DNA of 29,809 nucleotides from an uncultured bacterium (GCA_965651105.1 CBFGRG010000001.1:1-29809), one strand, 5' to 3'. Counted from the first letter of the stretch, positions 2,361-28,477 are shown. Program-made: numbers and translations. Notes: a model not told the origin generated them from the sequence alone.

Positions 2361-2432
2361 GTCAACTCCTTATATTCGGTGTCAATCAACCAGTCACCGG
2401 GCACACCATCGTGCACCCGCTGAGGCACGAGA

Positions 2433-3533: not shown

Positions 3534-3553
3534 GGTGAAATCGTTCCCCTTTG

Positions 3554-5002: not shown

Positions 5003-5180
5003 TGTGGCTCCTTTCCGGCCGGGGTGGCGGTGCTCCGTCCATAGACACTGCCATCCCCGACACCGGACAACTCCGGCAGGTGACCGCAAGGACGCCAGGC
5101 GGTCGTCACCGGAATCGAATTGGTCCTGACGGCCGGCCCTTGAGTTCCGGCTGCCGGACATCGTCTCGTCCTCACAACCG

Positions 5181-5225
5181 AGTATTGGCACCGAGCATCA
5201 ACGTAACGTCAACGCTTACGTCAAT
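5181..5225 (-). promoter_or_regulatory. SARP-type activator site B: three direct repeats plus -10
   Basis: Minus strand reads TTGACG-TAAGCG-TTGACG-TTACG-TTGATG-CTCGGTGCC-AATACT. Lies in the divergent intergenic region next to the SARP gene. Confidence 0.7.
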
Positions 5226-5248
5226 CCGAACAGGTCGAGGCGTACAAT
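5220..5248 (+). promoter_or_regulatory. candidate sigma70-type promoter of the SARP regulator
   Basis: TACAAT at 5243-5248. The position 17 nt upstream (5220-5225, GTCAAT) coincides with the outermost repeat of site B. Confidence 0.4.
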
Positions 5249-5293
5249 GGCGCAGGGCCTACATCGTTCGCCATCGCGACAGGATCCGGTACC

Positions 5294-8278
5294 GTGGCAC
5301 CATTGAAGCTTTCCCTGCTGGGGCCGCTGCATGTCGAGCGTGACGGCCAACCGATCTCTGGCCCGGTATATGCCAAGGTGCTGGCGCTGCTGGTCTTCCT
5401 TGCGGTCGAGTCGGACCGCCCGCACCAGCGTTCCGCGCTGGCTGCGCTGCTCTGGCCCGACCAGTCGGAGGATCGCGCTCGCCACAGCCTTCGCCAGGCA
5501 CTCAGCACGCTGCGCCGGGCGGTCGACGCCGGGGCGCAGCACCCATCGATAACCGTCACCCGCAACACGGTGACGTTCAATCGCGATGGCGGACACGACG
5601 TGGATGTGATCGAGCTGATGAGCCTGCTGGACGCCTCGGACCGGCACGATCACGACGACGCGGCGACCTGCGCGTCGTGCGCTGACCGGCGCGAGCGCGC
5701 CGTGGCGCTCTACCGGGGCGATCTGGTCGATGGGTTCACCATTCCCGACAGCGACGTGTTCGAGGACTGGGTGCAGGTCTGGCGCCAGCGCTTCCGCGAG
5801 CGGGTGGTGACTGCGCTCGACGACATCTCGACGTGGCATGAACGGATGGGCCGCCGCGACCTGGCGATCTCGGCGGTCCGGCGCCAGCTGGAGCTGGACC
5901 CCTGGCGTGAACCGGGGCATCGCCGCTTGATGGATCTGCTCTGGCAGGACGGCAACCGCGCCGGCGCGCTCGCCCAGTTCGAACGCTGTCGCGACCTCCT
6001 GGATGCCGAGGTCGGAGTCGAGCCCGAGCCGGAGACCATCGCGCTGTACGAGCGGATACGCGACGGAACACCTCACGCCGCCACCACCGGGACCGATTCC
6101 GTCGGCGCGGCGCGGCCGCTCCCCGCCCCGGCCACTCGCCTCGTCGGGCGCACACGCGAGCTGGAGGAAATCACCGACCTGCTCGAGCAACGCGGCTGCA
6201 GGCTGCTGACGCTGGCCGGACCCGGCGGCGTCGGCAAGACACGACTGGCGCTGCACATCGCGCACGAACGCGCCAGGCGTCGCGGCGAAATCGTCGGCGT
6301 GGTCCCGCTCACCCACGTTCACGACGCCGACGGCATCTGCGCGGCGATCGCCGACACCTTTGGGCTATCGGTGCAGCCGTCCCGGCCGATCCTGGCGCAA
6401 ATCGCGGGGTGGCTCCACGGGCGCGACGTCTTCCTGGTCATGGACAACGCCGAACACCTCACCGCCGAGATGGACGTGCTCTCGGACCTGCTGGCGGCCG
6501 AGCCGGGCCTGACCTTGCTCGTGACGACGCGGGAGCGCATTCGGCTCGCCGCGGAGTGGGTCTACGAAGTCCGCGGGATGAGCGTGCCGACAAATCCGGA
6601 TACCGACGCGTTCGAGGGTTACGACGCGGTCGAGCTGTTCATGGAGCGTGTTCGGCAGGTGCGCCCGGGAGCGCCGCTCCGGCACGATGAGCGACCAGAC
6701 GCGATCCGCATCTGCCAGCTCGTTTCGGGCTTCCCACTGGCCCTGGAGCTCGCGGCCGCATGGGCCGCGACCCTGCCGCTCGAGCGCATCGCGAGCGAAA
6801 TCCAGGAAAATCTCGATTTCCTCGCGGCAACCACGCGGGACCTCCCCGATCGCCACGCCAGCCTGCGCGCCGTGTTCTCGTCATCGTGGGAAATGCTCTC
6901 CCCCATCGAGCAGACAGCGTGGCGCCGCCTCTCGGTGTTCGACGATGGCTTCGATCTCGCCGCTGCCAGGGAAGTCACCGGTACGGATCTCGCCACGCTC
7001 GCGAACCTGATCAACAAATCGCTGCTGTCGCGCCTCGACCTCGACCGGTATCTCCTCCACCAGTTGCTGCGACAGTACGGGGACGAACTGCTCCAGCAGA
7101 ACCCGGAGGAGTATCGCGACACCCGGGACCTGCACGCGCGGCACTTTCTCGGCAGGCTCGCGGGGATGGAGGAGGCGCTCACAGGTCGCGACCAGCCGCA
7201 GGCGCTGGAGACGATAGAGGATATGCTCGGCAACCTCCGATCGGCGTGGTCATGGGCGGCGAAAGGCGAGGCGATCGACGAGATGGTCGCGGCGGCGCAC
7301 GCATTCTGGCTCTATCACGCGATCCGCGGCCGGATGGGAGAGGGTGCGGCAACCTTTGGAGAGATGCTCGAAGCGCTCGAACGCCGAGCCTGCGAAGGCG
7401 ATACAGAGAGCTGCGGGCGGACACTGGCCCTTGCCCGGGTGTACACCGGCGGGTTCCGCAGCGGGCTCGGGCGCTACGATGAGGGCATCGAGCTCCTGCG
7501 AGACGGCATCGCGACCCTCCGCGAATGCGGAACCGGCCGGGATCTGGGGCTGGCCCTCAACATGCTCGCCGCCGCGCTGACGATGAAGGGCCGCGATACC
7601 GAGGTCCGTGATTGCCTGCAGGAGAGCCTCGAAGCCTCCGAGCGCGCGGGCGACCGATGGACGACGGCGTTCGCGCTGAACGATCTCGGCATGTTGCTGC
7701 ACAAGCATTTCGGGGATGACGACGCCTCGCGGCACTGCGAACGCAGTCGCACCATCTTCCGGCAGATCGGCGATGCGCGCGGCCAGGCCTTCGCCGCCCA
7801 CAACCTCGGCATCATCGCTTTCGAGCAAGGCCGGTATCGCCGCGCGATGGCGCTTCACCACGAGGCGAAGTCGCTCCGATCGGAGATCAACGACACATGG
7901 GGCGTCGCGACATCGCTGGTGCAAATCGGCGTCGTCTCCCGTGCCACGGGCGCAACCGACGCAGCTCGCCGCGAGCTCACGCGCGCCCTCCGTGTCGCCT
8001 GGGAGAGCTCGATCGTGCCGGTCGTGCTGGAAGCGCTCGTCGAGCTCGCCGGGCTGGATATCGACATGGGCACGGCCGACGACACCGAAGGGACGCTCGC
8101 CGCTCTTGCCGCGCATCCGGTGTTGCCGAGACACATGCGGCCGCGACTGGAGCACCTGATGGCGCTCGCCGGCGTCGAGCCCGCATGGCCGGAGCCCGAT
8201 GCCGAAGACAACCGATGGGCAACTCAGGCGGTGGACCGGCTCGCGCGCCGAGCGCTGGCCGGTGGCGTCACCACCTGA
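5294..8278 (+). CDS. AfsR/SARP-family transcriptional regulator: OmpR-type wHTH + BTAD + NB-ARC/STAND ATPase + TPR repeats
   Basis: LSLLGPLHV..ALLVFLA..LLWPD..SLRQALSTLRR; LELDPWRE..LMDLL..G.RAGALAQFE (BTAD); Walker A GPGGVGKT; Walker B LVMDNAEHL; GFPLALELAA; Ala/Leu-rich TPR C-terminus. Confidence 0.93.
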   Translation: MAPLKLSLLGPLHVERDGQPISGPVYAKVLALLVFLAVESDRPHQRSALAALLWPDQSEDRARHSLRQALSTLRRAVDAGAQHPSITVTRNTVTFNRDGGHDVDVIELMSLLDASDRHDHDDAATCASCADRRERAVALYRGDLVDGFTIPDSDVFEDWVQVWRQRFRERVVTALDDISTWHERMGRRDLAISAVRRQLELDPWREPGHRRLMDLLWQDGNRAGALAQFERCRDLLDAEVGVEPEPETIALYERIRDGTPHAATTGTDSVGAARPLPAPATRLVGRTRELEEITDLLEQRGCRLLTLAGPGGVGKTRLALHIAHERARRRGEIVGVVPLTHVHDADGICAAIADTFGLSVQPSRPILAQIAGWLHGRDVFLVMDNAEHLTAEMDVLSDLLAAEPGLTLLVTTRERIRLAAEWVYEVRGMSVPTNPDTDAFEGYDAVELFMERVRQVRPGAPLRHDERPDAIRICQLVSGFPLALELAAAWAATLPLERIASEIQENLDFLAATTRDLPDRHASLRAVFSSSWEMLSPIEQTAWRRLSVFDDGFDLAAAREVTGTDLATLANLINKSLLSRLDLDRYLLHQLLRQYGDELLQQNPEEYRDTRDLHARHFLGRLAGMEEALTGRDQPQALETIEDMLGNLRSAWSWAAKGEAIDEMVAAAHAFWLYHAIRGRMGEGAATFGEMLEALERRACEGDTESCGRTLALARVYTGGFRSGLGRYDEGIELLRDGIATLRECGTGRDLGLALNMLAAALTMKGRDTEVRDCLQESLEASERAGDRWTTAFALNDLGMLLHKHFGDDDASRHCERSRTIFRQIGDARGQAFAAHNLGIIAFEQGRYRRAMALHHEAKSLRSEINDTWGVATSLVQIGVVSRATGATDAARRELTRALRVAWESSIVPVVLEALVELAGLDIDMGTADDTEGTLAALAAHPVLPRHMRPRLEHLMALAGVEPAWPEPDAEDNRWATQAVDRLARRALAGGVTT

Positions 8279-9089: not shown

Positions 9090-10433
9090 TCACGCCCGAC
9101 CAGCGAAGCGTATGACCAGATCGTAAATGAACTGCGTGCCGAAGGCGAGATCGTCGACGTGCACGCGCTCATTGTGACCATGGACGAGCCCATCGTAGAG
9201 TTGCAGGCGCTCGGTCGGCAGGTTCGGGAAGAAGCCGTAAACCTTCACGCCGGGAATCAGCGGCGCATCGGTCCCGCCCGAGGACATCGTCGGAATCACC
9301 GCAGCGCCAGGGTCGAGCTCGGCGACCGTCTCGACGATCGCATCGAAAAAGGACGATTCGGCGTCGGCGGCCGTTCCACCATCCGGCGAGACAATCTCGA
9401 TCGACGCGAGATCGCCCACCACCGCCTGCACCTCGGCCCGGAACGCCTCCGGATCCTGTCCAGGGAGCACACGGCCGTCGATATCGACCACGATCTCGCC
9501 GGGGATCACGTTGATCCGCTGCCCGCCGTGGATCATCGTTGGCACCGCCGTGTTGCGGGTGGTCGCCCGCAGCGTCAGCAGCTCGTCTTCATTGAATGGC
9601 AGCTTCGCCAGATCGTCCCACGCGACATCGTCGCGCGCGAGCAGATTCCGGACCGTCTCGGCCAGATCCCCGCCGACCGTATCAGCGATCGTTGTCAGCA
9701 TCGTCCGCACCGTCGGGGTGAAGACGGTCGGCGCCTGCCAGGCGTGGAGTCGCAGGAGCGCCTCACCGAGCCTGCTCATGGCGGTCTCGTCGAGCGGCAC
9801 CGAAGCGTGCCCCGGCGTGCCGGTGACGACCATCCGCAGGTGCGTCGAGCCCTTCTCCGCCACCTGGCAACCGTAGAACCGATGTCCTTCGACCTCTATC
9901 GGCGCGCCGCCGCCCTCATTGATCGCGAACTCGGCGTCGATCAGGTCGCGGTGATGCTTCCACATCCAGTCCGCGCCGAACGCGCCGCCCTCCTCCTCGT
10001 CCGCGAATGCGACGAAGATGACATCGCGATCGAGCGGGACGTTGCGCTCCTTCAGCGCCAGCATCACGGCCAGCTCGGCGGCGACCTGCCCCTTCATGTC
10101 GAGCGCGCCGCGTCCCCAGATATAGTCGTCAACCAGCTCGCCCCCGAACGGATCCCGCTCCCAGCGCTCCGGCTCGACCGTGACTACGTCGGTGTGGCCC
10201 ATCAGCATGATCGGTCGGCCAACAGGATTGTCCGCCCGCAGGCGCGCGACGAGCGTGGCGCGATTCGGTGCCGATTCGAGCACATCCACCTCGTCGAAGC
10301 CCGCCCCCCGCAGAATCGACGCGATGTGGTCGGCAGCCAGTTTCTCGTTGCCCGGTGGGCTCATGGTATTGAGGCGCAGCAGCGCCTGCAGGTGCTCGAC
10401 CGCGCTCTCGCGCAGGGCAGGATCGACATTCAT
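9090..10433 (-). CDS. M20/M25/M40 family metallopeptidase/amidohydrolase (ArgE/DapE/ACY1-like)
   Basis: GHTDVV; GRGALDMKG; DEEEGG; NEGG; AEKG; GGTD; HGHNER. Start ATG 10433 or GTG 10439; the track's 721-aa version over-extends into the antisense strand of SCO. Confidence 0.92.
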
Positions 10434-10585
10434 ACTCACAGGCTTGCCTCGAAACGCGGCCGGCATCGCCGGCACCGACAGGTTGCACGGGCACATCCTA
10501 CACGCGGTCAGGCAGGCGTGCCGATCCTCGCCGGGCTCAGGGGTATCGCCGGTCGGTTCAATCGCCTCTTGTCGACTCCGGGCCG

Positions 10586-10594
10586 TGGTAGCAT
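10586..10594 (+). promoter_or_regulatory. candidate extended -10 promoter for the SCO/PCuAC operon
   Basis: TG-G-TAGCAT, 46 nt upstream of the SCO ATG. Confidence 0.35.
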
Positions 10595-10640
10595 GCTGGC
10601 GATGGGCCGAATCACGCGGCGGTTCGCCGGAAAGTGACAC

Positions 10641-11270
10641 ATGACCGAACTTCTCAAGGACAAGCCGTGGGTGCTCGGGCTGCTGGTGATGGGCGTCGCC
10701 CTTGCCGGTTTCGGGGTTTGGAACCTGACGAGCGAGACGCCGTATGAATGGCACGGCGCGGCGTACGATCCGCCTCGCAGCGGTGTCGACTTCACCCTGA
10801 CTGACACCGAAGGCGAACCGCTCTCGACGACCGAGCTCGAGGGCAAGATCGTGTTGCTCTACTTCGGATACACCTACTGTCCCGACTTTTGCCCCGCCAC
10901 GCTGACCGACTTCCAGCGCATCAAGCAGGACCTCGGCGACGATGCCGACCAGGTCGCCTTCGTCATGGTCACCGTCGATCCTGAGCGCGATACTCCCGAG
11001 CGCATGAAGGAGTATCTGGAGTTCTTCGACGAAACCTTCATCGGGCTGACCGGATCCGAAGAGGAGCTGGCGCCGATCAAGGACCAGTTCGGCATCATTT
11101 CCATGGCGGGTGATGCGACGCCCCAGAGCGACGGCGACCAGGTCTACTGGGTCGACCACTCGACCAAGGTCTACGCTCTCGACAAGGATGGGAATCTCGC
11201 GCTCGAGTACGCGTTTGGCGCCGACCCTGCCGATATCACCGAGGACGTCGAGCACCTGATCGACTCCTGA
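10641..11270 (+). CDS. SCO family (SCO1/SenC/PrrC) copper chaperone, N-terminal membrane anchor
   Basis: YFGYTYCPDFCP (CxxxC); VTVDPERDTP; conserved His in VDHS. Confidence 0.93.
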   Translation: MTELLKDKPWVLGLLVMGVALAGFGVWNLTSETPYEWHGAAYDPPRSGVDFTLTDTEGEPLSTTELEGKIVLLYFGYTYCPDFCPATLTDFQRIKQDLGDDADQVAFVMVTVDPERDTPERMKEYLEFFDETFIGLTGSEEELAPIKDQFGIISMAGDATPQSDGDQVYWVDHSTKVYALDKDGNLALEYAFGADPADITEDVEHLIDS

Positions 11271-12408: not shown

Positions 12409-12492
12409 GCCGAATTGGTGGAATTGGCAGACACGCCAGCCTTAGGAGCTGGTGCCCGCGAGGGTGTGTGGGTTCGAGTCCCGCGTTCGGCA
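12409..12492 (+). tRNA. tRNA-Leu (anticodon TAG), CCA not fully encoded
   Basis: Acceptor stem GCCGAAT/GTTCGGC; D-loop TGGTGGAATTGGCAGAC; anticodon arm CCAGC-CT-TAG-GA-GCTGG; long variable arm; T-arm GTGGG-TTCGAGT-CCCGC; discriminator A. Confidence 0.97.
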
Positions 12493-12548
12493 CCGAGCAA
12501 TCAATTGGTTCAACGAATGGTTTTCCCGCGAGGACCGGGTTGCGCTGG

Positions 12549-13017: not shown

Positions 13018-13887
13018 TCAGGCTCCAGTGCCCCAGCCGAGCCGCCGCCACGCTGATGCGGGCAGGATCTGGTCGACTCGCTCCAGCACCCAGTCGGGCC
13101 GGTCGGTCGGGGCGATCCCGGCCAGCATCGCCGGCGTCGTCTCGCCCGTCAGCACAAGCGCCGAAGGCATTCCCGCGTCGAGCGCCATGCGGATATCGGT
13201 CATCAGCCGGTCGCCGATCATCACACAGCGCTCCGCCGGCAGCTCCAGCCGCGCCAGCGCCGCCGCGAGCATGTACGGGTCGGGCTTGCCCGTATGCCGC
13301 CGCAGCGTCGTGCCGGTGCATCCCTCGACCGCGCCGATGATCGCCGCCGCGTCCGGCTCGCCCCGGCCACCGGGAAACGGGCAGAACCGGTCGGGATTGG
13401 TCGCCACCAGAAAGGCGCGACCCTCGGTGCGGATCGCGTCAAAGGCGATCTGCAGCTTCCGGTAGTCGAACCCCCGGTCGTAACTGGCGATCACGATGTC
13501 GATCTCGCGCGGATCTTCCGACATCCGGATCCCGGCAGCGGAGAGCGCATCCTTCAACGGCTGCTCGCTGATCGGGAACACCGTCGCCTCGGGGTGGTGC
13601 GCCAGCAGCCAGGCGGTCATCGTGTCGACCGTGTTCAGCACCTGCTCGGGCGTGGCAGCGATCCCGAACCGCGCCAGCTTGTGCACATACTCGGCGGGCG
13701 AGCTGGTCGGATTGTTGGAGAGGAACAGCACCTTCCGGTCGAGGGCGGCCAGCGCCTCGATCAGCCGCCTCGCGCCAGGCAGCGGGTCATCGCCGAGATA
13801 GATCGTGCCGTCGAGGTCAAAAACATACCCGTCCAGCAACTTGTCCGGACGGGCTGCTCCCGCGATGGATGTCGATTCCGACTGCAT
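13018..13887 (-). CDS. HAD-IIA family phosphatase (NagD/AraL-like)
   Basis: Motif I DLDGTIY; motif II SNN; TNPD; GKP; motif IV GDRLMTDI; LVLTG. Confidence 0.92.
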   Translation of the reverse strand: MQSESTSIAGAARPDKLLDGYVFDLDGTIYLGDDPLPGARRLIEALAALDRKVLFLSNNPTSSPAEYVHKLARFGIAATPEQVLNTVDTMTAWLLAHHPEATVFPISEQPLKDALSAAGIRMSEDPREIDIVIASYDRGFDYRKLQIAFDAIRTEGRAFLVATNPDRFCPFPGGRGEPDAAAIIGAVEGCTGTTLRRHTGKPDPYMLAAALARLELPAERCVMIGDRLMTDIRMALDAGMPSALVLTGETTPAMLAGIAPTDRPDWVLERVDQILPASAWRRLGWGTGA

Positions 13888-13995
13888 TTCTGCTCACTCT
13901 CTCATCACCGATCGCAAAAACTCCGGGCACCATCCCGGCGCCGCGACCTGCCCTCAGCATACCCAGCCTGACCAGAGCGCGCTGCACATTCGTCG

Positions 13996-14009
13996 TGCAC
14001 ATCGGTGCA
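13996..14009. promoter_or_regulatory. palindromic operator 1 (TGCAC-ATCG-GTGCA), putative SorC-family site
   Basis: Perfect TGCAC-N4-GTGCA in the divergent HAD/AraM intergenic region; recurs at 18526, 19507 and 22105. Confidence 0.7.
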
Positions 14010-14025
14010 GGACGAGACTCAGTCA

Positions 14026-14055
14026 TTGACACCCCATCTGCTTCATACGTAGCCT
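14026..14055 (+). promoter_or_regulatory. sigma70-type promoter for the araM-like/derI-like operon
   Basis: TTGACA-N18-TAGCCT. Confidence 0.55.
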
Positions 14056-14116
14056 CATTTCATGACCCGGCGTCGATTGGCCGCGTCCACTCCCGGGATG
14101 CACACGGAGCACGAAC

Positions 14117-15490
14117 ATGACCTTGCGAAACGACCGGCCGCCTGTCCAGCGCGCGCTCGCCGGCGCCTCCACCACGCGCCAGATCGTGATGCGCGCCGGC
14201 GCGCTCGCCGAAACGGGGCGGCTCGCGCGGGAGATGTTCCCCGGTCGCACCGCGGTAATCGTCGCCGACGGAAACACGTTTCGGGTCGCCGGTGAGTGGG
14301 TCCAGGCATCGCTGCGCGATGCTGACGTGTCGATCGCCGAGCCGATCGTGTTCCCGGCCGAGCCGACGCTCCGGCCGGATGTGAGCAATGTCGCGACGAT
14401 CCTCACGCATCTCGGTCCGGACACCGTGCCCGTCGCCGTCGGCTCGGGCACGATCAACGACCTGACGAAGCGCGCCGCCCACGAGGCCGGTCTCCCCTAC
14501 CTGGTGGTGGCCACGGCCGCATCGATGGACGGCTACACCGCCTCCGGCGCGGCCCTGATCGCCGATGGGGTAAAGCAGACATTCCCGTGCGCGGCGCCCG
14601 AAGCGGTGATAGCCGACCTCGATGTGCTCGCGGCGGCGCCGGAGGGCATGACCGCGTCAGGCTACGGCGACCTGATCGGCAAGGTCACGGCCGGCGCCGA
14701 CTGGATCCTGGCCGACGCCCTCGGCATCGAGCCGATCCTGCCCGACGTGTGGGAGATGGTTCAGGGACCGCTGCCCGGCATGATCGCCGATCCCGAACGA
14801 TATTTCCGGGGCGAGCGGGACGAAATCGAGCAGCTCTTCGGCGGTCTGGTGATCACCGGGCTCGCGATCCAGGCCGCCGGCGTCACGCGCCCCGCCTCGG
14901 GCAGCGAGCACCAGTTCAGTCACCTCTGGGAGATGCGCGGGCTCGAGCACCAGGGCGAGCTGGTATCCCACGGCAAGAAGGTCGGCCTCGGCACGATCGT
15001 CTCGACCACGATCTACGAGCGCCTGCTGGCCACCCCGGTCGACCGGCTGGACATCGATCGCGCGGTCGCGGCATGGCCGAGCTGGCCCGAGATGGAGGCG
15101 ATCATCCGGCGCAGCCACGACCACCCCGCGCTGGTCGAGAAGGCACTGGAGGAGTGCCGCGCCAAGCACCTGACGCCGGACGCGCTCGGCGACCGACTGA
15201 CCCGGCTTCGGGACCAGTGGCCGGAGCTCGCGCCGAAACTGCGCGACCAGCTGCTGCCGGTCGGCCAGCTGCGAAGCCTGCTCAGGCAGGCACACTGCCC
15301 CACCCGCCCCGAGGACATCGGGCTCACCCTGACGCAGCTGCGCGAGAGCTACCTCACCGCTGGCCACATCCGCCGCCGGTACACCGTTTTCGACATCGTG
15401 CACGAGGCGGGCCTGCTCAACACGATCGTGGACGACATCTTCTCGCCCGGCGGTCCCTGGGAGACATCTGAAGGAGACGCGACGCCATGA
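14117..15490 (+). CDS. sn-glycerol-1-phosphate dehydrogenase family protein (AraM/EgsA-like, dehydroquinate-synthase-like fold)
   Basis: GSGTINDLTK; TAASMDGY; GYGDLIGK..ADW; SGSEHQFSH; HGKKVG metal-binding His motifs; RBS GGAG. Confidence 0.9.
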   Translation: MTLRNDRPPVQRALAGASTTRQIVMRAGALAETGRLAREMFPGRTAVIVADGNTFRVAGEWVQASLRDADVSIAEPIVFPAEPTLRPDVSNVATILTHLGPDTVPVAVGSGTINDLTKRAAHEAGLPYLVVATAASMDGYTASGAALIADGVKQTFPCAAPEAVIADLDVLAAAPEGMTASGYGDLIGKVTAGADWILADALGIEPILPDVWEMVQGPLPGMIADPERYFRGERDEIEQLFGGLVITGLAIQAAGVTRPASGSEHQFSHLWEMRGLEHQGELVSHGKKVGLGTIVSTTIYERLLATPVDRLDIDRAVAAWPSWPEMEAIIRRSHDHPALVEKALEECRAKHLTPDALGDRLTRLRDQWPELAPKLRDQLLPVGQLRSLLRQAHCPTRPEDIGLTLTQLRESYLTAGHIRRRYTVFDIVHEAGLLNTIVDDIFSPGGPWETSEGDATP

Positions 15491-16000: not shown

Positions 16001-17536
16001 TCAGGCACGGCTGAGATCGCTCAGCGCTCGCTGCTGCTCCGTCGTCCGCTCGTACAGCTCGCGATAGATCGCATATCCGGCGTCGTAGACCGAGGCGCGG
16101 TCCGGGTTCGGATCGACCCGCCGCGCGATCCGCGTCCAGCCGCCGACAAGGCGCTCCTCCGAGTCAACGATGCCTGACGCCAGCCCGGCGAGCATCGCAT
16201 CGCCATAGGACGCCCCGAGCGTGCGCTCGGGGATCAGTTGCGACACGCCGGTGATGTCGCTGACGATCTGCACCCACACGTCGCCCTGCGTGCCGCCGCC
16301 GACCGCGATAATCGAGTCCGGCATGGCTCCGGCTTCAGCCATGATCTCGAGGTGGTGCCGCACGCCGTACCCGACCCCCTCCAGGATCGACCGGTAGAGG
16401 TGACCGCGCGTGTGACGCAGCGTGAGTCCGGCGAACATGCCGCGGGCATCGGGATTGTGCAGCGGGGTGCGCTCGCCGGCGAAATACGGTAGGCAGATCA
16501 CCCCCTCGCTGCCGGCCGGGACAGCGTCCGCGAGATCGCACAGTTGACCATAGGCGCTCTCGCCAGTCTCCGCTTCCTTCCTGCGCTCGTCACCGGCCAG
16601 CTCCTCCCGAAACCACTTCGTTATCAGGCCGGACGTCGCCATCCCGCCCATGATCGCGCGGCGCCCCGGCAGGCTGTACGCTGCCGGCCACAGGCGAGGA
16701 TCGGTCCTGTGCTCCGCAACGAGGTTCAGCAGAAAGAAGGTGCTGCCATACATCAGCATCATCTGACCCGGCTCGACCACCCCCACACTCAGCGACTCGG
16801 CGGCCACGTCGATTGTGCCCGGCGTAACGGGGATGCCCTCCGGCAAGCCCGTTTCGGCGCTGGCAGCGGCTGTGACGTACCCTGCAATCTCGTTGGTGTC
16901 CAGTAACCGTGGCAGCCGATCGAGCCCGATGATGTCCCCGGCGAAGCGATCATCCCACTCCAGCCGCTCGATATTGAAGAGTGGATTGAACGCCGACGCC
17001 GTGTGGCGGTCGATCACATGCTCGCCTGTGAGGCGATAGACGATGTAGTCGCTTGACGAATGCACCATCGCCGTGCGGGCGAACAGCTCCGGCTCGTGTC
17101 TGCGCAGCCACAGGATCTTGGGTCCCACCGCCTGAGTGCTGAGCGGCATCCCGCCCAACGCGAAGATCGCCTCGGCACCGTGGCGCTCCTCCAGCCAGGC
17201 GATCTCTGCCGTGGCGCGCGTGTCGATCCCATAGAGCACCGCCGGTCGCAGCGGATGGCCGTCGGCGTCGAGCGGCAACATGCAGGGTCCGATCGCGCTG
17301 ATTGCGACCGCCCCGACATCGGCACTCCGGTTGCTGTCCTTCAGCAGCCGCTGGCAAATCTCCACGAACTCGCCCCACCAGAGCCCGTCGGCGTCGTGCT
17401 CGGCCCAACCTGGTCTGGGAAAGCTGGTGTCATGGTGCACAACTGTCGAGGCGACGACGTCCCCTTCAGACGTACACAGCACGCCTTTCGAGCTGGACGT
17501 GCCGATATCGACGCCGAGCAGCAGTGTCCCAGCCAT
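16001..17536 (-). CDS. FGGY-family carbohydrate/polyol kinase (xylulokinase-like, substrate unknown)
   Basis: LGVDIGTSSSKG; PGWAEHD; IDTRA; GPKILWL; PYFAGERTP..DARG; AVGGG. Start ATG 17536 after GAGAGGA. Confidence 0.93.
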   Translation of the reverse strand: MAGTLLLGVDIGTSSSKGVLCTSEGDVVASTVVHHDTSFPRPGWAEHDADGLWWGEFVEICQRLLKDSNRSADVGAVAISAIGPCMLPLDADGHPLRPAVLYGIDTRATAEIAWLEERHGAEAIFALGGMPLSTQAVGPKILWLRRHEPELFARTAMVHSSSDYIVYRLTGEHVIDRHTASAFNPLFNIERLEWDDRFAGDIIGLDRLPRLLDTNEIAGYVTAAASAETGLPEGIPVTPGTIDVAAESLSVGVVEPGQMMLMYGSTFFLLNLVAEHRTDPRLWPAAYSLPGRRAIMGGMATSGLITKWFREELAGDERRKEAETGESAYGQLCDLADAVPAGSEGVICLPYFAGERTPLHNPDARGMFAGLTLRHTRGHLYRSILEGVGYGVRHHLEIMAEAGAMPDSIIAVGGGTQGDVWVQIVSDITGVSQLIPERTLGASYGDAMLAGLASGIVDSEERLVGGWTRIARRVDPNPDRASVYDAGYAIYRELYERTTEQQRALSDLSRA

Positions 17537-17677
17537 GGCAGCGGCTTCCTCTCTCAACGAATCGATGCGATCTATCCGGTTCCGAACACGCCTCCGGCAA
17601 TGCGTCGGCTGCAGACATGCCGCCCGACTGGGCCGTCCCCGGGAGCGGCACGACGAGGCGTGGACGCAGCGGCTGGA

Positions 17678-18412
17678 TCAGTTGCCATCCAGATGCGCGA
17701 GCAACGCGGTCGGATAATCTGAAGTCACTGAATCCATGCCTCGCCCAATCGCGCTTTCGAGGTCATCGACGGTGTCGCACGGGCCGCCGCCAACGGTGAG
17801 CCCGTGCTCGTGGGCGCGCGCCACAAGCTCGGCAGCGGTCTCCCGATATCGATGCAGGTTGACTTGCGTACAGCCGAGTCGCCGCGCCGTGCCGATCGAA
17901 TCAGGATCGTCAGGCCGGGCGATGAATGCGGTCGCCAACGTTGGAGCGAGCCGCCGGACCGCCTCGACTGCCCCCACCTCGAACGAGGTGACGAGCGATT
18001 GTCGCTCTATGCCGCGCGCGCGAATCTCGTCGACGATCCCTTTGGCGATCCGTTCAATCCGCTCAGGCGTGTCCTTCTTGATCTCGAACTGGAGGACCTC
18101 GAACGTCGCGAGCACGTCAAGCGCCTCGGCCAGTGTCGGCACGCCCACCGGCTCCGACCAGGACGGGCAGGTGCCACGTGCGTCGAGTGCGGCAAGCTCC
18201 GCGGCGGAAAAGCTCTCGACCGCGCCGGTCGCGTTGGTGGTTCGATCGACCGTCGCGTCATGGATGACGACCAGCACATCGTCGCGGGAGATCCGGACAT
18301 CGAACTCGACCCGCCCCAACCCGAGCTGCCGGGCGTACTCGAAACCTGCGATCGTGTTCTCCGGCGACTCACCCATGGCGCCACGATGGCCAATGATCTG
18401 GATGCGCTTCAC
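17678..18412 (-). CDS. cytoplasmic glycerophosphodiester phosphodiesterase (GDPD, UgpQ-like) 1
   Basis: GTG 18412 after GGAGG; IGHRGA..PENT; EFDV; IHDATVDRTT; EIK; no signal peptide. Confidence 0.92.
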   Translation of the reverse strand: MKRIQIIGHRGAMGESPENTIAGFEYARQLGLGRVEFDVRISRDDVLVVIHDATVDRTTNATGAVESFSAAELAALDARGTCPSWSEPVGVPTLAEALDVLATFEVLQFEIKKDTPERIERIAKGIVDEIRARGIERQSLVTSFEVGAVEAVRRLAPTLATAFIARPDDPDSIGTARRLGCTQVNLHRYRETAAELVARAHEHGLTVGGGPCDTVDDLESAIGRGMDSVTSDYPTALLAHLDGN

Positions 18413-18525: not shown

Positions 18526-18539
18526 TGCACATCCGTGCA
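18526..18539. promoter_or_regulatory. palindromic operator 2 (TGCAC-ATCC-GTGCA)
   Basis: Perfect motif 114 nt upstream of the corrected GDPD1 start. Confidence 0.7.
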
Positions 18540-18665: not shown

Positions 18666-19394
18666 TCACCGGGCCGCCAGCAGCCGCAACATCTCCGTCG
18701 GCACGTCGGAGGTCGCAGCATCGACTCCCCAGTCCAGGCAGCGCTCAAGCGCCTCGGGCGTGTTGCACTGAAACCCGACCACACGCACGCCTTCTCGGTG
18801 CGCCGCGGCGACCATCTCCCGGGAGCTCGTATTCAGAGAGACGTCCACCTGGGTGCACCCCATCCTGAGCGCGTTCTCGAGATAATCAGGGGTATCGAAC
18901 GCGCCAATATAGGCTCGTGCCTGGTCCGGTGCGAGGCGGCCGATCGTCTCGACCGCGTGAACCTCGAACGAAGACACGATCACTCGAGATTCGAGGTGAC
19001 GATCCTGGACCATGCCCAGTACCGCCTCGGCAAGGCGCTCCATGCGCTCGTCGGTGTCCTTCTTGATCTCGATCTGGATCGTACCCATGTCCCCCAGGGC
19101 ATCAAGCACCGACTCCAGGGTGGGCACCCCCACCCGCTCCGGCCAATCCGGCAATGACGCCCGCGCATCGAGCGCGGCCAGCTCCTCGGCGGTAAACGCA
19201 CCCACCGGTCCGGAGCCATCGGTCGTTCGATCGACCGTGCCATCGTGGATCACGACGAGCTGACCGTCCTTGCTGAGATGGACATCGAGCTCGACGGCCG
19301 AAAGCCCGAGCTGCCGAGCGTGACGAAATCCCGGAATCGTGTTCTCGGGCACCTCATTTCGCGCCCCCCTGTGCCCAACGATCTGAAATGTCAC
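18666..19394 (-). CDS. cytoplasmic glycerophosphodiester phosphodiesterase (GDPD, UgpQ-like) 2
   Basis: Start GTG 19394 (or TTG 19397) after AGAGGGGAG; VGHRGA..PENT; ELDV; IHDGTVDRTT; EIK. The track's 509-aa version over-extends into the antisense strand of the regulator. Confidence 0.92.
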   Translation of the reverse strand: MTFQIVGHRGARNEVPENTIPGFRHARQLGLSAVELDVHLSKDGQLVVIHDGTVDRTTDGSGPVGAFTAEELAALDARASLPDWPERVGVPTLESVLDALGDMGTIQIEIKKDTDERMERLAEAVLGMVQDRHLESRVIVSSFEVHAVETIGRLAPDQARAYIGAFDTPDYLENALRMGCTQVDVSLNTSSREMVAAAHREGVRVVGFQCNTPEALERCLDWGVDAATSDVPTEMLRLLAAR

Positions 19395-19506
19395 CAAAAC
19401 GCTCTCCCCTCTGTGCTGCTCCGTCACGCGACCGGCAGGCGGTCGATATCGTGCACAGCGGCAGGTTCGCATACTCGCACAGGCCATATTGGTGCACAAT
19501 AGTTTT

Positions 19507-19520
19507 CGCACGGATGTGCA
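19507..19520. promoter_or_regulatory. palindromic operator 3 (CGCAC-GGAT-GTGCA; minus strand TGCACATCCGTGCG)
   Basis: One mismatch to operator 2; lies between divergent GDPD2 and the SorC-family regulator. Confidence 0.65.
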
Positions 19521-19571
19521 TGGGGCATGACCGACAAGACGTGGCGAGAACGTCGCCGGGAGATACCTGTC

Positions 19572-20561
19572 ATGAGCGATCAACCGATCGAGGTGGAGCG
19601 GACCGAAGGACACTCGGCGTCGGTAGCGACGAACGCCGAGATCATCACCTCCGTGGCGCGACTCTACTATCTCGAACGGCTGGGGCAGGCAGAGATCGCG
19701 TCGATCTACGGCGTGTCTCGATCGACAATCTCGCGAATGTTGACGGCGGCACGGGAGCTCGGCATCGTGCGCATCACGGTGGACGACTACGATCCGCGGG
19801 ATCGCGAGGCAGAGCGGCAGCTGACCAGCCAGTTCGGGCTGCGGCATGCGGTCGTGGTGCGGTCGGTCGAAGGCTCGGATGTCGCCACCCGGCGGGCCGT
19901 CGGGTACTTCGGCGCGCCGGAAGTCGAGGGCTGGATCGAGTCGAGCCACATCGTCGGCGTCGCCGGCGGTCGTTCGATCGGGGAGCTGCTGCGCGCGATC
20001 GGCCACAGAAGCCAGCCACAGGACCTCAAGGTTGTGCAGCTGATGGGCATGATCGGCTCCAGCCCGAGCAGTGTCGACGCGTCCGAGCTGAGCCGAATCC
20101 TCGCCAGCCGGTTTCACGGCGAGTTCCACAACATCAGCGCGCCGGCCTTCGTGAAGGACAAGCGCACGCGGGACCTCTTTCTCTCCCACTCCCAAATCCA
20201 GTCCGTCTGGAGTCGGTTCGAAGCGCTCGACCTCGCGTTTATCGGCATCGGCACCCTCGAGGACTCGGTTTTTGTCGAACGCAAGGTGCTCGATGATTCC
20301 GAGCTGGCGAAAGCAAGGCGCTCAGGCGCGGTCGGCGAGATTTGCGGACGCTTCTTCGACCAATCCGGGCAGGAGTGCGACTCGCCGTTCCGGAACCGCG
20401 TCGTCAGCATCGAGCTCGACGCACTTCGGAAAGGGAAAGAGGTGGTTGGTGTGACCACCGGCGCCTCGCGCGGCGAAGCTGTCCGCGCGGCGCTTCGCGG
20501 CGGACTTGTGCACTCACTGGTGATGGACGACACCTGCGCGCGGAGCGTGCTCGACGGGTGA
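19572..20561 (+). CDS. SorC/DeoR(Bsu)-family sugar-phosphate-binding transcriptional regulator
   Basis: ARLYYLERLGQAEIASIYGVSRSTISRMLTAARELGIVRI HTH; GVAGGRSI; GIG; GAVGEICGRFFD sugar-binding domain. Start ATG 19572 (GGAG, 9 nt) preferred over 19527. Confidence 0.93.
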   Translation: MSDQPIEVERTEGHSASVATNAEIITSVARLYYLERLGQAEIASIYGVSRSTISRMLTAARELGIVRITVDDYDPRDREAERQLTSQFGLRHAVVVRSVEGSDVATRRAVGYFGAPEVEGWIESSHIVGVAGGRSIGELLRAIGHRSQPQDLKVVQLMGMIGSSPSSVDASELSRILASRFHGEFHNISAPAFVKDKRTRDLFLSHSQIQSVWSRFEALDLAFIGIGTLEDSVFVERKVLDDSELAKARRSGAVGEICGRFFDQSGQECDSPFRNRVVSIELDALRKGKEVVGVTTGASRGEAVRAALRGGLVHSLVMDDTCARSVLDG

Positions 20562-20587: not shown

Positions 20588-21952
20588 CTACATCAGCACC
20601 TCTTCCGGCAGGACCCGGGCGAAGGGGGCCGTGCGCGGTGAGGCGTCATGGATGGCCGATGGAGCCGGCTCCCCGGCCTCGACCATGCGACTCACCAGCC
20701 GCTGCTTCAGGTGGTCGGCCACAGCACGGTGCGATTCGAGCCCGACCAGGTTGTTCAGCTCGTAGGGATCCACCTCCAGATCGTAAAGATACGTTTCCGT
20801 GTACTCGTCCGCGCCCGGAGCCGAACGCCCGTTGAGCCCCAGTGCGGTGACGGAGTATTTCCAGCGGGGCGTGCGGATGGCACGACCAATTTCGCTCTCG
20901 CTGATCTGGATAAAGACTTCGTTGCGCCACTCGCTCCGAGCACGCTGGCCGTCGCGAACGAGCGGCACGATCGATCGGCCCTGCATCGCCTCGGGCACGT
21001 CAATCCCGGCCGCATCGAGCAGCGTGGGCGGAAGGTCGATGAGACTGACCAGCTCGGCCACCTCGCCGCCACCGAAGAAACCGGGGCCGGTCAGCACGGT
21101 CGGCACCCGGACCGATGCATCCTGGCAGGATCGCTTGTACTCCCGCTCGTTTCCGCGCGTCTTGAAGTGGCAGCCGTGATCCGATGTGAAGAGGATGATC
21201 GTGTTGTCCCGCAGCCCGAGGCTCTTGAGGGCATCGAGCAGCCGGCCGTAGGCTTCATCCAGCCGTTTGATCATGCCCCAGTACCCGGCGATCTGCCGGT
21301 GCGCCGATCCGCCGAGCGCGGCCAGATCCGGTGGCAGCCAGCGCCCCTGGTAGCGCTCGCGGTAGCCATCCGGCGCCGGGTAGTCATCGGTGCGATTTTG
21401 GTGGTGCGGTTCCAGGTAGGAGCAGAAGAGGAAGAATGGCTCGTCGCGGTGGTCACTGACGAAGCGGATCGCCGCGTCGGTTTGGGCATCGACCCTGTAC
21501 CCGGGCAGGGTGACCTCCCGTTCCGCTTCGTCGTAGACCGTGAACCAGTATGGCTCGGAAGTATGTTCGAGGGTGTTCGCGGCAAGCCAGGTCGCATAGC
21601 CGCCTCGCTCCTCCGCGGACACCGGGTCGCCACTCGCGAGGTGCCATTTGCCGATGTAGCCCGTATGGTACCCGGCGTCGGCGAAATAATTGGCGAGCGT
21701 CGGCATGTCGCTCGGTAGCGCCATGGCGTCGTTTTTCCAGACACCGGTGCGGGTGGCGTAGAGACCCGTCTGCAGCGACGACCTGGCAGGACCACACACG
21801 GGCTGACAGGTGATCGACGTGTTCACATGCGTGCCCTGTCGTGCAATTCGGTCCAGATTCGGTGTCAACTCAAGCGGGTTGCCGTGCAGGCCGGTCGAGT
21901 CCCACCGCTGCTGATCCGTCAGGAACACAATCACGTTTGGTCGTTCGCTCAT
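20588..21952 (-). CDS. formylglycine-dependent sulfatase family hydrolase 1 (cytoplasmic)
   Basis: PNVIVFLTDQQR; CGPARSSLQTG (CxPxR); GKWH; PH; TSDHG. Start ATG 21952. Confidence 0.92.
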   Translation of the reverse strand: MSERPNVIVFLTDQQRWDSTGLHGNPLELTPNLDRIARQGTHVNTSITCQPVCGPARSSLQTGLYATRTGVWKNDAMALPSDMPTLANYFADAGYHTGYIGKWHLASGDPVSAEERGGYATWLAANTLEHTSEPYWFTVYDEAEREVTLPGYRVDAQTDAAIRFVSDHRDEPFFLFCSYLEPHHQNRTDDYPAPDGYRERYQGRWLPPDLAALGGSAHRQIAGYWGMIKRLDEAYGRLLDALKSLGLRDNTIILFTSDHGCHFKTRGNEREYKRSCQDASVRVPTVLTGPGFFGGGEVAELVSLIDLPPTLLDAAGIDVPEAMQGRSIVPLVRDGQRARSEWRNEVFIQISESEIGRAIRTPRWKYSVTALGLNGRSAPGADEYTETYLYDLEVDPYELNNLVGLESHRAVADHLKQRLVSRMVEAGEPAPSAIHDASPRTAPFARVLPEEVLM

Positions 21953-22104
21953 TCCTTCAAGACTCCTCTCCTGTGCGATCGTCGCTGACCTCCGGCCAAT
22001 GCATCCTGCCGGAATCGCACACCGTCGCCTGAGCCGACGCTGCTGGCCCATCAGGATGTACGGTCATCAAGTCACAGCGTGGCACAGAATGGCACGCTTG
22101 TAGC

Positions 22105-22118
22105 TGCACATGTGTGCA
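22105..22118. promoter_or_regulatory. palindromic operator 4 (TGCAC-ATGT-GTGCA)
   Basis: Perfect motif in the divergent sulfatase/sulfatase region, which also holds extra TGCAC half-sites at 22115, 22166, 22175 and 22189. Confidence 0.7.
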
Positions 22119-22133
22119 CACCCCTCTTTCTGT

Positions 22134-22163
22134 TTGACGCTGTCCGATGCGTGCTGCTAGCGT
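22134..22163 (+). promoter_or_regulatory. sigma70-type promoter for the sulfatase2-ABC-phoD unit
   Basis: TTGACG-N18-TAGCGT, same spacing as the promoter at 14026. Confidence 0.55.
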
Positions 22164-22272
22164 GGTGCACACGTTGCACGAACGGATTTGCACGCGCATC
22201 GCTCCGCGAGCCGCACACAGCGATCGACGGCATCCTCGAGCGGGCATTGCAGCAGACGAGGCAGCAGCCACC

Positions 22273-23724
22273 TTGACCACCACGTGGAGACCCAACATCG
22301 TCGTCTTGATGGCCGACGACCACCGGGGCACGGAGATGAGTCACCTGCCTCACGGGCAGGCCCGGACGCCGGTGCTCGATGCCCTCGCAGCACGTGGCGT
22401 CTCGTTCGACGGCGCTCACTGCCAGGGATCGATGATCCGGGCCGTTTGCGTGCCGAGCCGCGCCAGCCTCATGACCGGACGGAATATCTTCGCGTCGTCC
22501 AGCGACCCGACCGGCGGCGACTTCCAATGCGCCATCACCATTCCGCCCGACCTCGAAACCTTCCCCGAAGCGCTCCGCCGCGCCGGGTATCGCACCCACG
22601 CCGTGGGCAAGTGGCACAACGACACCGCGTCATTCCAGCGCTCCTTCTCCAGCGGCGACGCGATCATGTTCCTGGGCATGAGCGATCACCATGAGGTACC
22701 GACGTGGACCTATGATCCTGACGGCGAATACGCAGGCGCGAACGCCTGGAACTTCGATGAGCCACATACGGAAGAGGACACGGCCGGGAGCTATGTGTAC
22801 CGCGAAGGCTTTTCCAGCGACATCTTCGCGGACGCCGCGATCGACTTCCTCGGTCAGGACCACGGCGACGATCCGTTCCTGATGTACGTCGCCTTCACCG
22901 CCCCCCACGACCCGCGCACGCCCCCGCCGGGATGGGAGGTCGACCCTCAATCGATCGAGTTGCCGCCCAACTTCCTGCCCGAACATCCCTTCGACAACGG
23001 AGAGATGGAGGTGCGGGACGAGCTGCTGGCGGAATTCCCGCGCTCCGAAGCGGAAATCCGGCAGCACATCGCCGACTACTACGGCATGATTGCCCACCTC
23101 GATCACACGATTGGTCGCATCGTCGGCGCGATCGAGGAGCACGGCCTGGCTGACGACACCGTGATCATCTACACCGGCGACCACGGGTTGGCGGTGGGCC
23201 AGCACGGCCTGATGGGCAAGCAGAACCTTTACGAGCACAGCCTCCGCGTCCCGCTGGTGATAGCCGGTCCCGGCGTTCCGGCCACCGGTGTCGTCCACGG
23301 ACTTTCATGGCACGCGGATACCACGGCGACGATCTATGCGCTCGCGGGCTTGCCGCCCAACCCATCGGCGGAAGGCACCTCACTGATCGACAGCAACGGA
23401 GTCATTGCCGCACCTCGGCGGACACTTGGGGCCGCCTACGAGTACAGCCAGCGATCGTTTCGGGACCATCGGCACAAGCTCATCCGCTACTGGAAGGTCC
23501 GGGACACTGTCCCGAATCCAGGCACCACGCCGGGAACCGACATGGTCCAGCTCTATGACCTCGAGCGCGACCCGTGGGAGATGGACAACCTCGCGGACGA
23601 CCCGAGTTACGCGGAGACCCTCGAGCGCCTCAATCACGGGCTCCAACAGTGGCAGCGAGATGTCGACGATGTCCAGCTCGCTTTCCACCCAGGGATCGGT
23701 GACGCGACAGGAGCATGTTCATGA
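22273..23724 (+). CDS. formylglycine-dependent sulfatase family hydrolase 2 (cytoplasmic)
   Basis: Probable TTG start at 22273 (GAGG upstream); PNIVVLMADDHR; CVPSRASLMTG; GKWH; APHDP; TGDHG; GKQNLYE. Confidence 0.92.
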   Translation: MTTTWRPNIVVLMADDHRGTEMSHLPHGQARTPVLDALAARGVSFDGAHCQGSMIRAVCVPSRASLMTGRNIFASSSDPTGGDFQCAITIPPDLETFPEALRRAGYRTHAVGKWHNDTASFQRSFSSGDAIMFLGMSDHHEVPTWTYDPDGEYAGANAWNFDEPHTEEDTAGSYVYREGFSSDIFADAAIDFLGQDHGDDPFLMYVAFTAPHDPRTPPPGWEVDPQSIELPPNFLPEHPFDNGEMEVRDELLAEFPRSEAEIRQHIADYYGMIAHLDHTIGRIVGAIEEHGLADDTVIIYTGDHGLAVGQHGLMGKQNLYEHSLRVPLVIAGPGVPATGVVHGLSWHADTTATIYALAGLPPNPSAEGTSLIDSNGVIAAPRRTLGAAYEYSQRSFRDHRHKLIRYWKVRDTVPNPGTTPGTDMVQLYDLERDPWEMDNLADDPSYAETLERLNHGLQQWQRDVDDVQLAFHPGIGDATGACS

Positions 23725-25184: not shown

Positions 25185-25217
25185 TCACTCGCGCCAGGAA
25201 ACGAAAGGACTGCAGAC

Positions 25218-26507: not shown

Positions 26508-26535
26508 GCCGCCTCGAACGGACCGAAAACCGTCT

Positions 26536-26582
26536 CACGGCCCACCACTCGTTCGCCTCGGCTGAACTGGTGGTGGGTCGTG
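26536..26582 (+). other. intercistronic stem-loop after the SBP genes
   Basis: CACGGCCCACCACTCGTTCG pairs with ...GAACTGGTGGTGGGTCGTG (about 19 of 20 pairs, counting G-U); no U-tract. Confidence 0.55.
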
Positions 26583-26627
26583 CGAGGGGCACAGCAATCA
26601 CTTCACACCACGGGGCAAGGAAGCTGG

Positions 26628-28446: not shown

Positions 28447-28477
28447 AGCCCACGGTGACGCCAGAAAGAGGCCCATT

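Follow-up and report, generated by a model that had tools for sequence, protein, structure and literature searches.

A long-form AraM-type dehydrogenase and its HAD-IIA phosphatase neighbour in a probable phosphodiester-scavenging regulon of an uncultured Chloroflexota bacterium

We analysed a stretch of 29,809 nucleotides from an uncultured bacterium (GCA_965651105.1, CBFGRG010000001.1:1-29809; the whole stretch is called the window below), in which a HAD-IIA phosphatase and a dehydrogenase related to Bacillus subtilis AraM are encoded divergently at positions 13018-15490. The pair is not isolated but is part of a larger unit, and it probably belongs to a phosphodiester-scavenging regulon under a local SorC-type regulator. 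In that setting, the dehydrogenase most likely oxidises glycerol phosphate released by glycerophosphodiester phosphodiesterases (GDPDs), most likely sn-glycerol-1-phosphate (G1P), to dihydroxyacetone phosphate (DHAP). We put the probability of a catabolic or salvage role, rather than one in lipid synthesis, at roughly 85%, while for G1P as the physiological substrate in this clade we would offer even odds. The catabolic role, which a first-pass annotation of this DNA had proposed over archaeal-type lipid synthesis, is supported by five independent lines of evidence: the missing prenyl-transferase partner, a shared operator, a local regulator, fusions of the dehydrogenase to GDPD domains, and a separate glycerol route elsewhere in the genome.

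Results

The window is a contig of 66% G+C from a metagenome-assembled genome (MAG; 3.41 Mb, 538 contigs, 83% complete) whose nearest relatives are Thermomicrobiales/Chloroflexia MAGs, and the genome is that of a soil-type Chloroflexota. Mapping all long open reading frames (ORFs) of the window by Pfam and NCBIfam scans confirmed the gene content that the first-pass annotation had described. The phosphatase and the dehydrogenase are intact, with Pfam and TIGR matches, and diverge from a 229-bp spacer; no long ORF matched the AraA or AraD family, so that arabinose genes are indeed missing; GDPDs and a Ugp-like importer (23874-28446) lie in the same neighbourhood; and a geranylgeranylglyceryl phosphate synthase (PcrB/GGGPS) was not found in the window. 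The unit reads as follows.

13018-13887, minus strand: HAD-IIA phosphatase (AraL-like class), 289 aa; Pfam, TIGR01460 and motifs
13996-14009, middle of the divergent HAD/dehydrogenase spacer: palindrome TGCACATCGGTGCA, putative operator; exact match
14117-15490, plus strand: long-form AraM-type Fe-ADH_2 dehydrogenase (resembling glycerol-1-phosphate dehydrogenase, G1PDH), 457 aa; PF13685
15487-15990, plus strand: RpiB-type sugar-phosphate isomerase; PF02502, E 9e-47
16001-17557, minus strand: FGGY carbohydrate kinase, XylB-like, not GlpK; FGGY_N, FGGY_C
17678-18412, minus strand: GDPD of ~244 aa, UgpQ-like, lacking a signal peptide; PF03009, E 4.5e-31
18526-18539, upstream of the GDPD/kinase operon: palindrome TGCACATCCGTGCA; exact match
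18666-19397, minus strand: second GDPD, ~243 aa, cytoplasmic; PF03009, E 3.9e-41
19507-19520, between the starts of the second GDPD and SorC genes: palindrome with one mismatch
19527-20561, plus strand: SorC/EryD/CggR-family regulator (helix-turn-helix and sugar-binding domain); PF04198, E 1.7e-60
20588-22051, minus strand: sulfatase-family hydrolase (Cys-type; PehA/choline-sulfatase-like); PF00884, E 6e-57, CGPAR
22105-22118, divergent sulfatase spacer: palindrome TGCACATGTGTGCA; exact match
22147-23724, plus strand: second sulfatase-family hydrolase, encoded at the head of the importer operon; PF00884, E 1e-49, CVPSR
23874-26507, plus strand: two solute-binding proteins with twin-arginine (Tat) signals, distantly UgpB-like; SBP_bac_8, SBP_bac_1
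26580-28446, plus strand: two ATP-binding cassette (ABC) permeases; BPD_transp_1 in both
28394-29809, plus strand: PhoD phosphodiesterase/phosphatase with Tat signal, running off the window; PhoD, E 4e-83, PhoD_N

The strongest evidence on the substrate came from relatives of the dehydrogenase. The enzyme belongs to a long-form family of 430-470 aa proteins, with 1052 representatives at 50% identity (E < 1e-30) and with members in Chloroflexota, Actinomycetota, Dormibacterota, Planctomycetota, Verrucomicrobiota and Armatimonadota, and with members from Acidobacteriota found among the relatives of fusion proteins. Several of the best 150 representatives exceed the family length, and four carry an N-terminal GDPD domain. 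At least 13 clusters share this GDPD-dehydrogenase architecture, with 43-52% identity and ~98% coverage relative to the fusion protein used as query, and one of them is from an Opitutaceae MAG. Because the catalytic residues of both domains (HR, ExD and HD of the GDPD, and the dehydrogenase motifs) are invariant across the fusion proteins, the fusion appears to be a real bifunctional enzyme and not an error of gene calling. A Horticoccus sp. genome encodes the same two proteins separately, the GDPD gene overlapping the dehydrogenase start by 4 nt and a SorC regulator preceding them. The conserved GDPD fusion argues more strongly than any other observation that the dehydrogenase acts on a phosphomonoester released by a GDPD. 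Of the best 120 relatives, only one fuses RpiB to the dehydrogenase, and a second conserved architecture of this kind was therefore not supported. Further fusions, each with a single representative, join the dehydrogenase to a cytidylyltransferase, to DUF1667, to an AraC DNA-binding domain or to a SorC sugar-binding domain; the cytidylyltransferase fusion suggests that some members of the family feed CDP-glycerol-type synthesis.

The genes of the unit are further tied together by a shared palindrome. An exact 14-bp copy of TGCAC-N4-GTGCA occurs in three promoter regions, namely those of the HAD/dehydrogenase pair, of the GDPD-kinase operon and of the sulfatase/importer genes, and a copy with one mismatch occurs at the promoter of the second GDPD and SorC genes. 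Allowing for at most one mismatch, we counted 6 sites against 1.24 expected, a number that was reached in 0 of 100 shuffles. The palindrome also lies just upstream of the orthologous dehydrogenase at five related loci (L005, L006, L010, L011 and L013), and orthologues of the SorC protein (52-77% identity) are encoded at ten (L004-L009, L013, L014, L032 and L081). The SorC protein is a candidate for the factor that binds the palindrome.

A partner that would use G1P for lipid synthesis was looked for beyond the window, as PF01884 (PcrB/GGGPS). This genome (83% complete) gave no match, and neither did five other carrier genomes, which include Rubrobacter marinus with a complete chromosome record; not even a weak match was seen in the 11 carriers of the long-form gene among 151 genomes of the class. 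As a control, the search recovered the family from B. subtilis and from archaea. The long-form gene itself is present in only 11 of the 151 class genomes, and 5 of 18 members of the same family carry it; a patchy accessory gene without a transferase to use its product does not fit a role in making membrane backbones. Glycerol is provided for elsewhere in the genome, with a canonical GlpK (686 bits) on another contig and a GlpD-like gene, indicating that the AraM-like enzyme serves something that this route cannot handle. The same GlpK led us to reject the kinase of the window as a glycerol kinase.

The dehydrogenase matched Fe-ADH_2 (PF13685) at E 5e-33, and its nearest solved relative is B. 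subtilis AraM (PDB 9h4x; sequence E 6.5e-47). An AlphaFold2 model (pLDDT 90.4) aligned with the same structure in Foldseek at E 5e-22, with a TM score of 0.86 on AraM and 0.75 on the query and 28% identity, ahead of the archaeal G1PDHs, which reached ~19% identity. We located every motif that AraM shares with the archaeal G1PDHs: GSGT at residue 109, SMDG at 136, GYGD at 182, RPASGSEH at 258-265 and SHG at 284. The last four align with the same motifs of AraM and of the Methanocaldococcus jannaschii and Pyrobaculum G1PDHs, and the signature common to AraM and the archaeal enzymes (SxDG, GxGD, RPxSGSEH, HG) is kept in full. By homology with GldA and G1PDH, we assign putative Asp/His/His metal ligands. 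A second Fe-ADH gene of the genome was discarded as irrelevant, since it encodes an ordinary Fe-ADH with ADH_Fe_C, unrelated to the enzyme studied here.

The phosphatase matched Hydrolase_6 and Hydrolase_like (both ~E 1e-23) and scored 121 against TIGR01460 (HAD-SF-IIA), above the cut-off of 100.15, with motif I (DLDGT) at residue 24 and motif IV (GDRLMTD) at residue 225. Its best solved relative is a NagD-like p-nitrophenyl phosphatase of Thermotoga. AraL and AraM of B. subtilis likewise form a phosphatase/dehydrogenase pair.

We then compared 80 related loci, 50 of which are flanked by 3 kb or more on either side. HAD-IIA orthologues (55-77% identity) are encoded no more than 10 kb from the dehydrogenase at 56 of the 80 loci, across several phyla, FGGY kinases at 54, RpiB at 39, GDPDs and an ABC importer at 10 each, and PhoD at 4; among the well-flanked loci, the phosphatase lay within 5 kb in 38 cases and the kinase in 39. 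The pairing of phosphatase and dehydrogenase is thus far above chance. Other neighbours were SorC (17 loci), DeoR (11), MDR dehydrogenases (11) and transketolase (9). The order solute-binding protein, permease, permease, PhoD, dehydrogenase, with HAD and GDPD divergent, recurs at four loci: L014, which comes from a genome flagged as unpublished, and the public loci L017, L020 and L032. GpsA-like genes occurred at 18 and GlpD-like genes at 12 of the 80 loci (L071, L077 and L081 being examples), and none of the three representatives that we scanned, from L071 and L077, reached its NCBIfam equivalog cut-off. At some long-form loci, as many as three kinds of glycerol-phosphate dehydrogenase thus occur together.

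A tree of 94 long-form proteins, built by a quick search and rooted at the midpoint for drawing only, resolved four supported groups. The first, from Thermomicrobiales/Chloroflexota, holds the protein of the window, and a GDPD or PhoD gene lies within 6 kb in 12 of its 15 rows. In the second, from Actinomycetota/Dormibacterota, 35 of 44 rows show an operon of HAD, an AraB-like kinase and the dehydrogenase. The GDPD fusions fall in the third (Planctomycetota/Verrucomicrobiota), and the fourth consists of other Chloroflexota. The constant core is therefore the phosphatase and the dehydrogenase, and the accessory enzymes vary by clade.

Downstream of the dehydrogenase, the RpiB start overlaps its stop codon (ATGA), with a GGAGA ribosome-binding site inside the 3' end of the dehydrogenase gene. 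RpiB scored 181.1 against the ribose-5-phosphate isomerase model TIGR02133 (cut-off 168.2) and 159.9 against the DerI model NF051858 (D-erythrulose-4-phosphate isomerase; cut-off 240). As RpiA is encoded on another contig, the RpiB of the window is an accessory copy, and a housekeeping isomerase was ruled out. The kinase scored 309 against XylB (TIGR01312), below the cut-off of 380; its best PDB match is 3ifr, itself of unknown specificity, and it shares only ~30% identity with the AraB-like kinase found in the actinobacterial operons.

The gene starts of both GDPDs were revised. A 509-aa "long GDPD" was rejected as an artefact of an upstream TTG start, because the SorC gene (PF04198, E 1.7e-60), overlooked in the first-pass annotation, occupies the other strand at 19527-20561; the 270-aa extension has no domain and an arginine-rich composition unlike that of a protein. 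The second GDPD instead starts at 19397/19394, after the ribosome-binding site GGGGAGAG, and the first was re-set to the GTG at 18412, after GGGAGG, which leaves both proteins at ~244 aa, the size of Escherichia coli UgpQ. Against the UgpQ model NF006989 they scored 114 and 135 (cut-off 264). We also rejected secretion of the GDPDs or of the sulfatase-family proteins, as none of the four N-termini has a signal peptide. Both solute-binding proteins carry RR twin-arginine motifs, and PhoD carries RRTFL. The best PDB matches of the second binding protein are UgpB proteins (E 7e-19); the two scored 71 and 45 against the UgpB model NF008211 (cut-off 411). A gene for the ATPase (UgpC) was not found in the window, which ends inside PhoD.

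The two divergent Cys-type (CxPxR) sulfatase-family genes at 20588-23724 have the palindromic operator in common with the phosphodiester genes. The protein encoded at 20588-22051 falls below all NCBIfam model cut-offs, and the two may be phosphodiesterase/phosphonate-monoester hydrolases of the PehA kind rather than sulfatases. Two FGE-type maturation genes are found elsewhere in the genome.

The left edge of the cluster is marked by a tRNA-Leu(TAG) gene at 12409-12494 (plus strand), some 520 bp short of where the HAD gene ends. An Rfam scan of the window returned tRNA only, and a promoter and terminator scan returned nothing above chance. Given its patchy occurrence among relatives (11 of 151 class genomes), the cluster may be a mobile accessory island. 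Further to the left, 1257-8278 encodes a tandem pair of paralogous methyltransferases with an Rv2258c-like winged helix, together with a BBE-type FAD oxidase and a SARP/BTAD-NB-ARC-TPR regulator of 994 aa, a set that resembles a small secondary-metabolite-type cluster and is unrelated to the HAD/dehydrogenase pair. Between them, a 721-aa M20 peptidase ORF (9090-11255, minus strand) overlaps the end of a ThuA gene, and its first ~330 residues have no Pfam match, pointing to a mis-set start or an N-terminal domain of unknown type.

Discussion

We propose the following scheme for the window, in which we infer the substrate, the direction of flux and the part played by the phosphatase. Secreted PhoD would attack phosphodiester polymers outside the cell, the Ugp-like ABC system with its two binding proteins would import glycerophosphodiesters or glycerol phosphates, and the two cytoplasmic UgpQ-like GDPDs would split the imported diesters. 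Any sn-glycerol-3-phosphate (G3P) would enter the ordinary GlpK/GlpD route encoded elsewhere. G1P, which may derive from phosphatidylglycerol head groups, from polymers of the lipoteichoic-acid type or from archaeal lipid backbones and which GlpD cannot use, would be oxidised with NAD(P)+ to DHAP by the long AraM-type dehydrogenase. The HAD-IIA phosphatase would form an alternative branch that frees phosphate from the same pool of polyol phosphates when phosphorus, and not carbon, is needed, and the FGGY kinase and RpiB would most likely process either the alcohol so released or a longer polyol. The phosphatase branch has a parallel in Mycobacterium tuberculosis Rv1692 and mammalian PGP, both of which are matched by the phosphatase of the window and act on glycerol phosphate downstream of the breakdown of phospholipid head groups. 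The scheme fits recent findings on a marine bacterium that can live on G1P as its only source of carbon and whose UgpB binds G1P and G3P about equally (PMC12718374); the main text and one supplementary file of that report name no intracellular enzyme that oxidises G1P.

Several points weigh against this scheme. The dehydrogenase scored 156.6 bits against the NCBIfam G1PDH equivalog NF002022, whose cut-off is 413 bits and which is centred on archaeal EgsA, so that the miss lowers its membership among the G1PDHs without excluding it. It is also 60-120 aa longer than AraM or the archaeal enzymes, the extra length being modelled as helices in the C-terminal domain, and we know of no enzyme activity for any long-form member. 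The GlpQ/UgpQ-type GDPDs that have been characterised release sn-G3P rather than G1P, and a G1P-releasing GDPD is, to our knowledge, hypothetical. A pure oxidation route gives no reason for the constant phosphatase partner, which the branch proposed here explains only loosely. Translation of RpiB is coupled to that of the dehydrogenase, and at nearly half of the loci (39 of 80) the two are encoded no more than 10 kb apart, but DHAP is, as far as we know, not a substrate of RpiB; the linked kinases are moreover of the pentulose type and not GlpK, which would leave RpiB and the kinase without a job in a pure G1P route. Finally, kin share context, and the neighbourhood counts are thus not independent events.

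The main rival to G1P is a longer polyol phosphate. Here, the dehydrogenase would convert a terminal 1,2-diol to a 2-ketose phosphate, which RpiB would then isomerise; the substrate would come from phosphorylation of a C4/C5 alcohol (erythritol, threitol or ribitol) by the FGGY kinase or from GDPD-type cleavage of teichoic-acid fragments, the resulting erythrose-4-phosphate or ribose-5-phosphate would pass into the pentose-phosphate pathway, and the HAD protein would remove a toxic phosphorylated by-product. Such a pathway would give a place to the ATGA overlap, to an accessory RpiB beside RpiA, and to the frequency of RpiB and FGGY kinases near the dehydrogenase (39 and 54 of the 80 loci). 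It is likewise favoured by the actinobacterial HAD/AraB-like kinase/dehydrogenase operon (35 of 44 rows), with transketolase (9), MDR polyol dehydrogenases (11) and DeoR/SorC regulators nearby, by the one RpiB-dehydrogenase fusion, and by the missed G1PDH cut-off and extra C-terminal helices. However, a single protein carries the RpiB fusion, in contrast to the conserved architecture of the GDPD fusion, and both the clade of the window and that of the fusions are linked to GDPDs and not to AraB-like kinases; with the actinobacterial one of these, the kinase of the window shares only ~30% identity. EryB, EryC and EryH were not found in the window, RpiB passes the model for ribose-5-phosphate isomerase but fails that for erythrulose-4-phosphate isomerase, and we know of no Fe-ADH_2 enzyme that oxidises such substrates. 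Hence, we consider a longer polyol phosphate rather unlikely as the substrate, if clearly the most serious competitor.

Scavenging of G1P also has to be weighed against polyol synthesis, in which the dehydrogenase would run in reverse, reducing DHAP to G1P, and the HAD phosphatase would free glycerol, either as a redox sink or for use as a compatible solute. Pairs of a dehydrogenase and a HAD phosphatase are a standard design for polyol synthesis, as in the yeast Gpd/Gpp pair, and here they form the most constant pair of the neighbourhood (56 of 80 loci), as they do in AraL-AraM; AraM and archaeal G1PDHs have, in addition, been assayed in the reductive direction. Yet the importer, GDPDs, PhoD and kinase of the regulon are functions of uptake and breakdown, a kinase in the same unit would create a futile cycle, the GDPD fusions would feed the enzyme a phosphomonoester, and glycerol synthesis from G3P needs no new enzyme, all of which makes this reading improbable. 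Least probable of all, and in our view a very long shot, is that the enzyme supplies G1P for an ether lipid, as AraM does with PcrB in Bacillus, or for another G1P-containing polymer: this is the only role shown experimentally for a bacterial homologue (Guldan et al. 2008, 2011, by the account given in PMC4244643), and a cytidylyltransferase-dehydrogenase fusion elsewhere in the family and a Streptomyces araM in a teichoic-acid-like cluster (PMC13118837) are in its favour, but PcrB/GGGPS was not found in this genome, the five other carriers or the 11 carriers of the class sample, the gene is patchy (11/151 in the class, 5/18 in the family), and the window has no transferase or lipid gene.

The family of the long-form enzyme and its Bacillus member were known already; to this the window adds a tie to phosphodiester scavenging, the operator shared with a local SorC regulator and the evidence from fusions. 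In a literature search, we found no paper that gives the family a catabolic role or describes the GDPD fusions. Bacterial homologues of G1PDH are usually discussed as evidence on the "lipid divide" and on mixed membranes. We tentatively suggest, at somewhat less than even confidence, that the long-form AraM-type enzymes are the missing bacterial catabolic sn-G1P dehydrogenases and that, together with Ugp-type importers and with GDPDs of complementary stereochemistry, to which they are fused in Verrucomicrobiota/Planctomycetota, they allow bacteria to assimilate the other-handed glycerol phosphate. If so, a family long read as a trace of archaeal-type lipids in bacteria would be mainly a recycling tool, and if this large clade is catabolic, many genomic inferences about the lipid divide would need revising. 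Large amounts of organic phosphorus reside in teichoic acids and phospholipid head groups, so that a stereochemically complete breakdown route would matter for phosphorus and carbon cycling. The cluster and the GDPD fusions provide directly testable candidates for the intracellular G1P enzyme, a question opened by the 2025 report that bacteria take up G1P and grow on it (PMC12718374).

Archaeal G1PDHs (EgsA; M. jannaschii 4rgq, Pyrobaculum 5fb3) have the same fold and the same catalytic motifs, but they are 330-350 aa long and ~19% identical to the enzyme of the window; they serve anabolism, occur universally in their lineages and have GGGPS as a partner, whereas the gene described here is accessory and sits in a catabolic-looking regulon. 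B. subtilis AraM is closer: it is a Ni2+-dependent G1PDH with the same metal-ligand and signature motifs, and, as in the window, it is encoded beside a HAD-IIA phosphatase, with genes for an FGGY kinase and an ABC importer close by. It differs in its length (394 aa versus 457 aa, the latter with extra helices in the C-terminal domain) and in its setting, as the window lacks araA, araD and abfA of the ara operon, a PcrB partner was not found in the genome, and the regulon is instead built on GDPDs, PhoD, a Ugp-like importer and a SorC regulator. On the phosphatase side, Rv1692 (a G3P phosphatase of polar-head recycling) and mammalian PGP/G3PP are of the same HAD-IIA class and are matched by the phosphatase of the window (4i9f, E 4e-21; 7po7, E 1e-17), but they are not its nearest relatives.

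The erythritol pathway of Brucella and Rhizobium offers a similar set of kinase (EryA, FGGY), isomerase (EryI, RpiB) and regulator (EryD, SorC) beside a polyol-phosphate dehydrogenase. However, the EryB (GlpD-type), EryC and EryH families were not found in the scans of the window, whose dehydrogenase is from another superfamily than EryB and whose RpiB falls below the erythrulose-4-phosphate isomerase cut-off, and the pathway has no counterpart to the GDPD, Ugp and PhoD context. The logic of the unit is instead that of phosphodiester scavenging, shared with E. coli Ugp (UgpBAEC and UgpQ) and with the teichoic-acid scavenging of B. subtilis GlpQ/PhoD, through a distantly UgpB-like binding protein, small cytoplasmic GDPDs and a secreted PhoD. 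Unlike the Ugp system, the window misses all the NCBIfam equivalog cut-offs and has two binding proteins and two GDPDs, and it adds to the Ugp-type set an AraM-like dehydrogenase, a HAD-IIA phosphatase, RpiB, an FGGY kinase, two Cys-type sulfatase-family enzymes and a SorC regulator.

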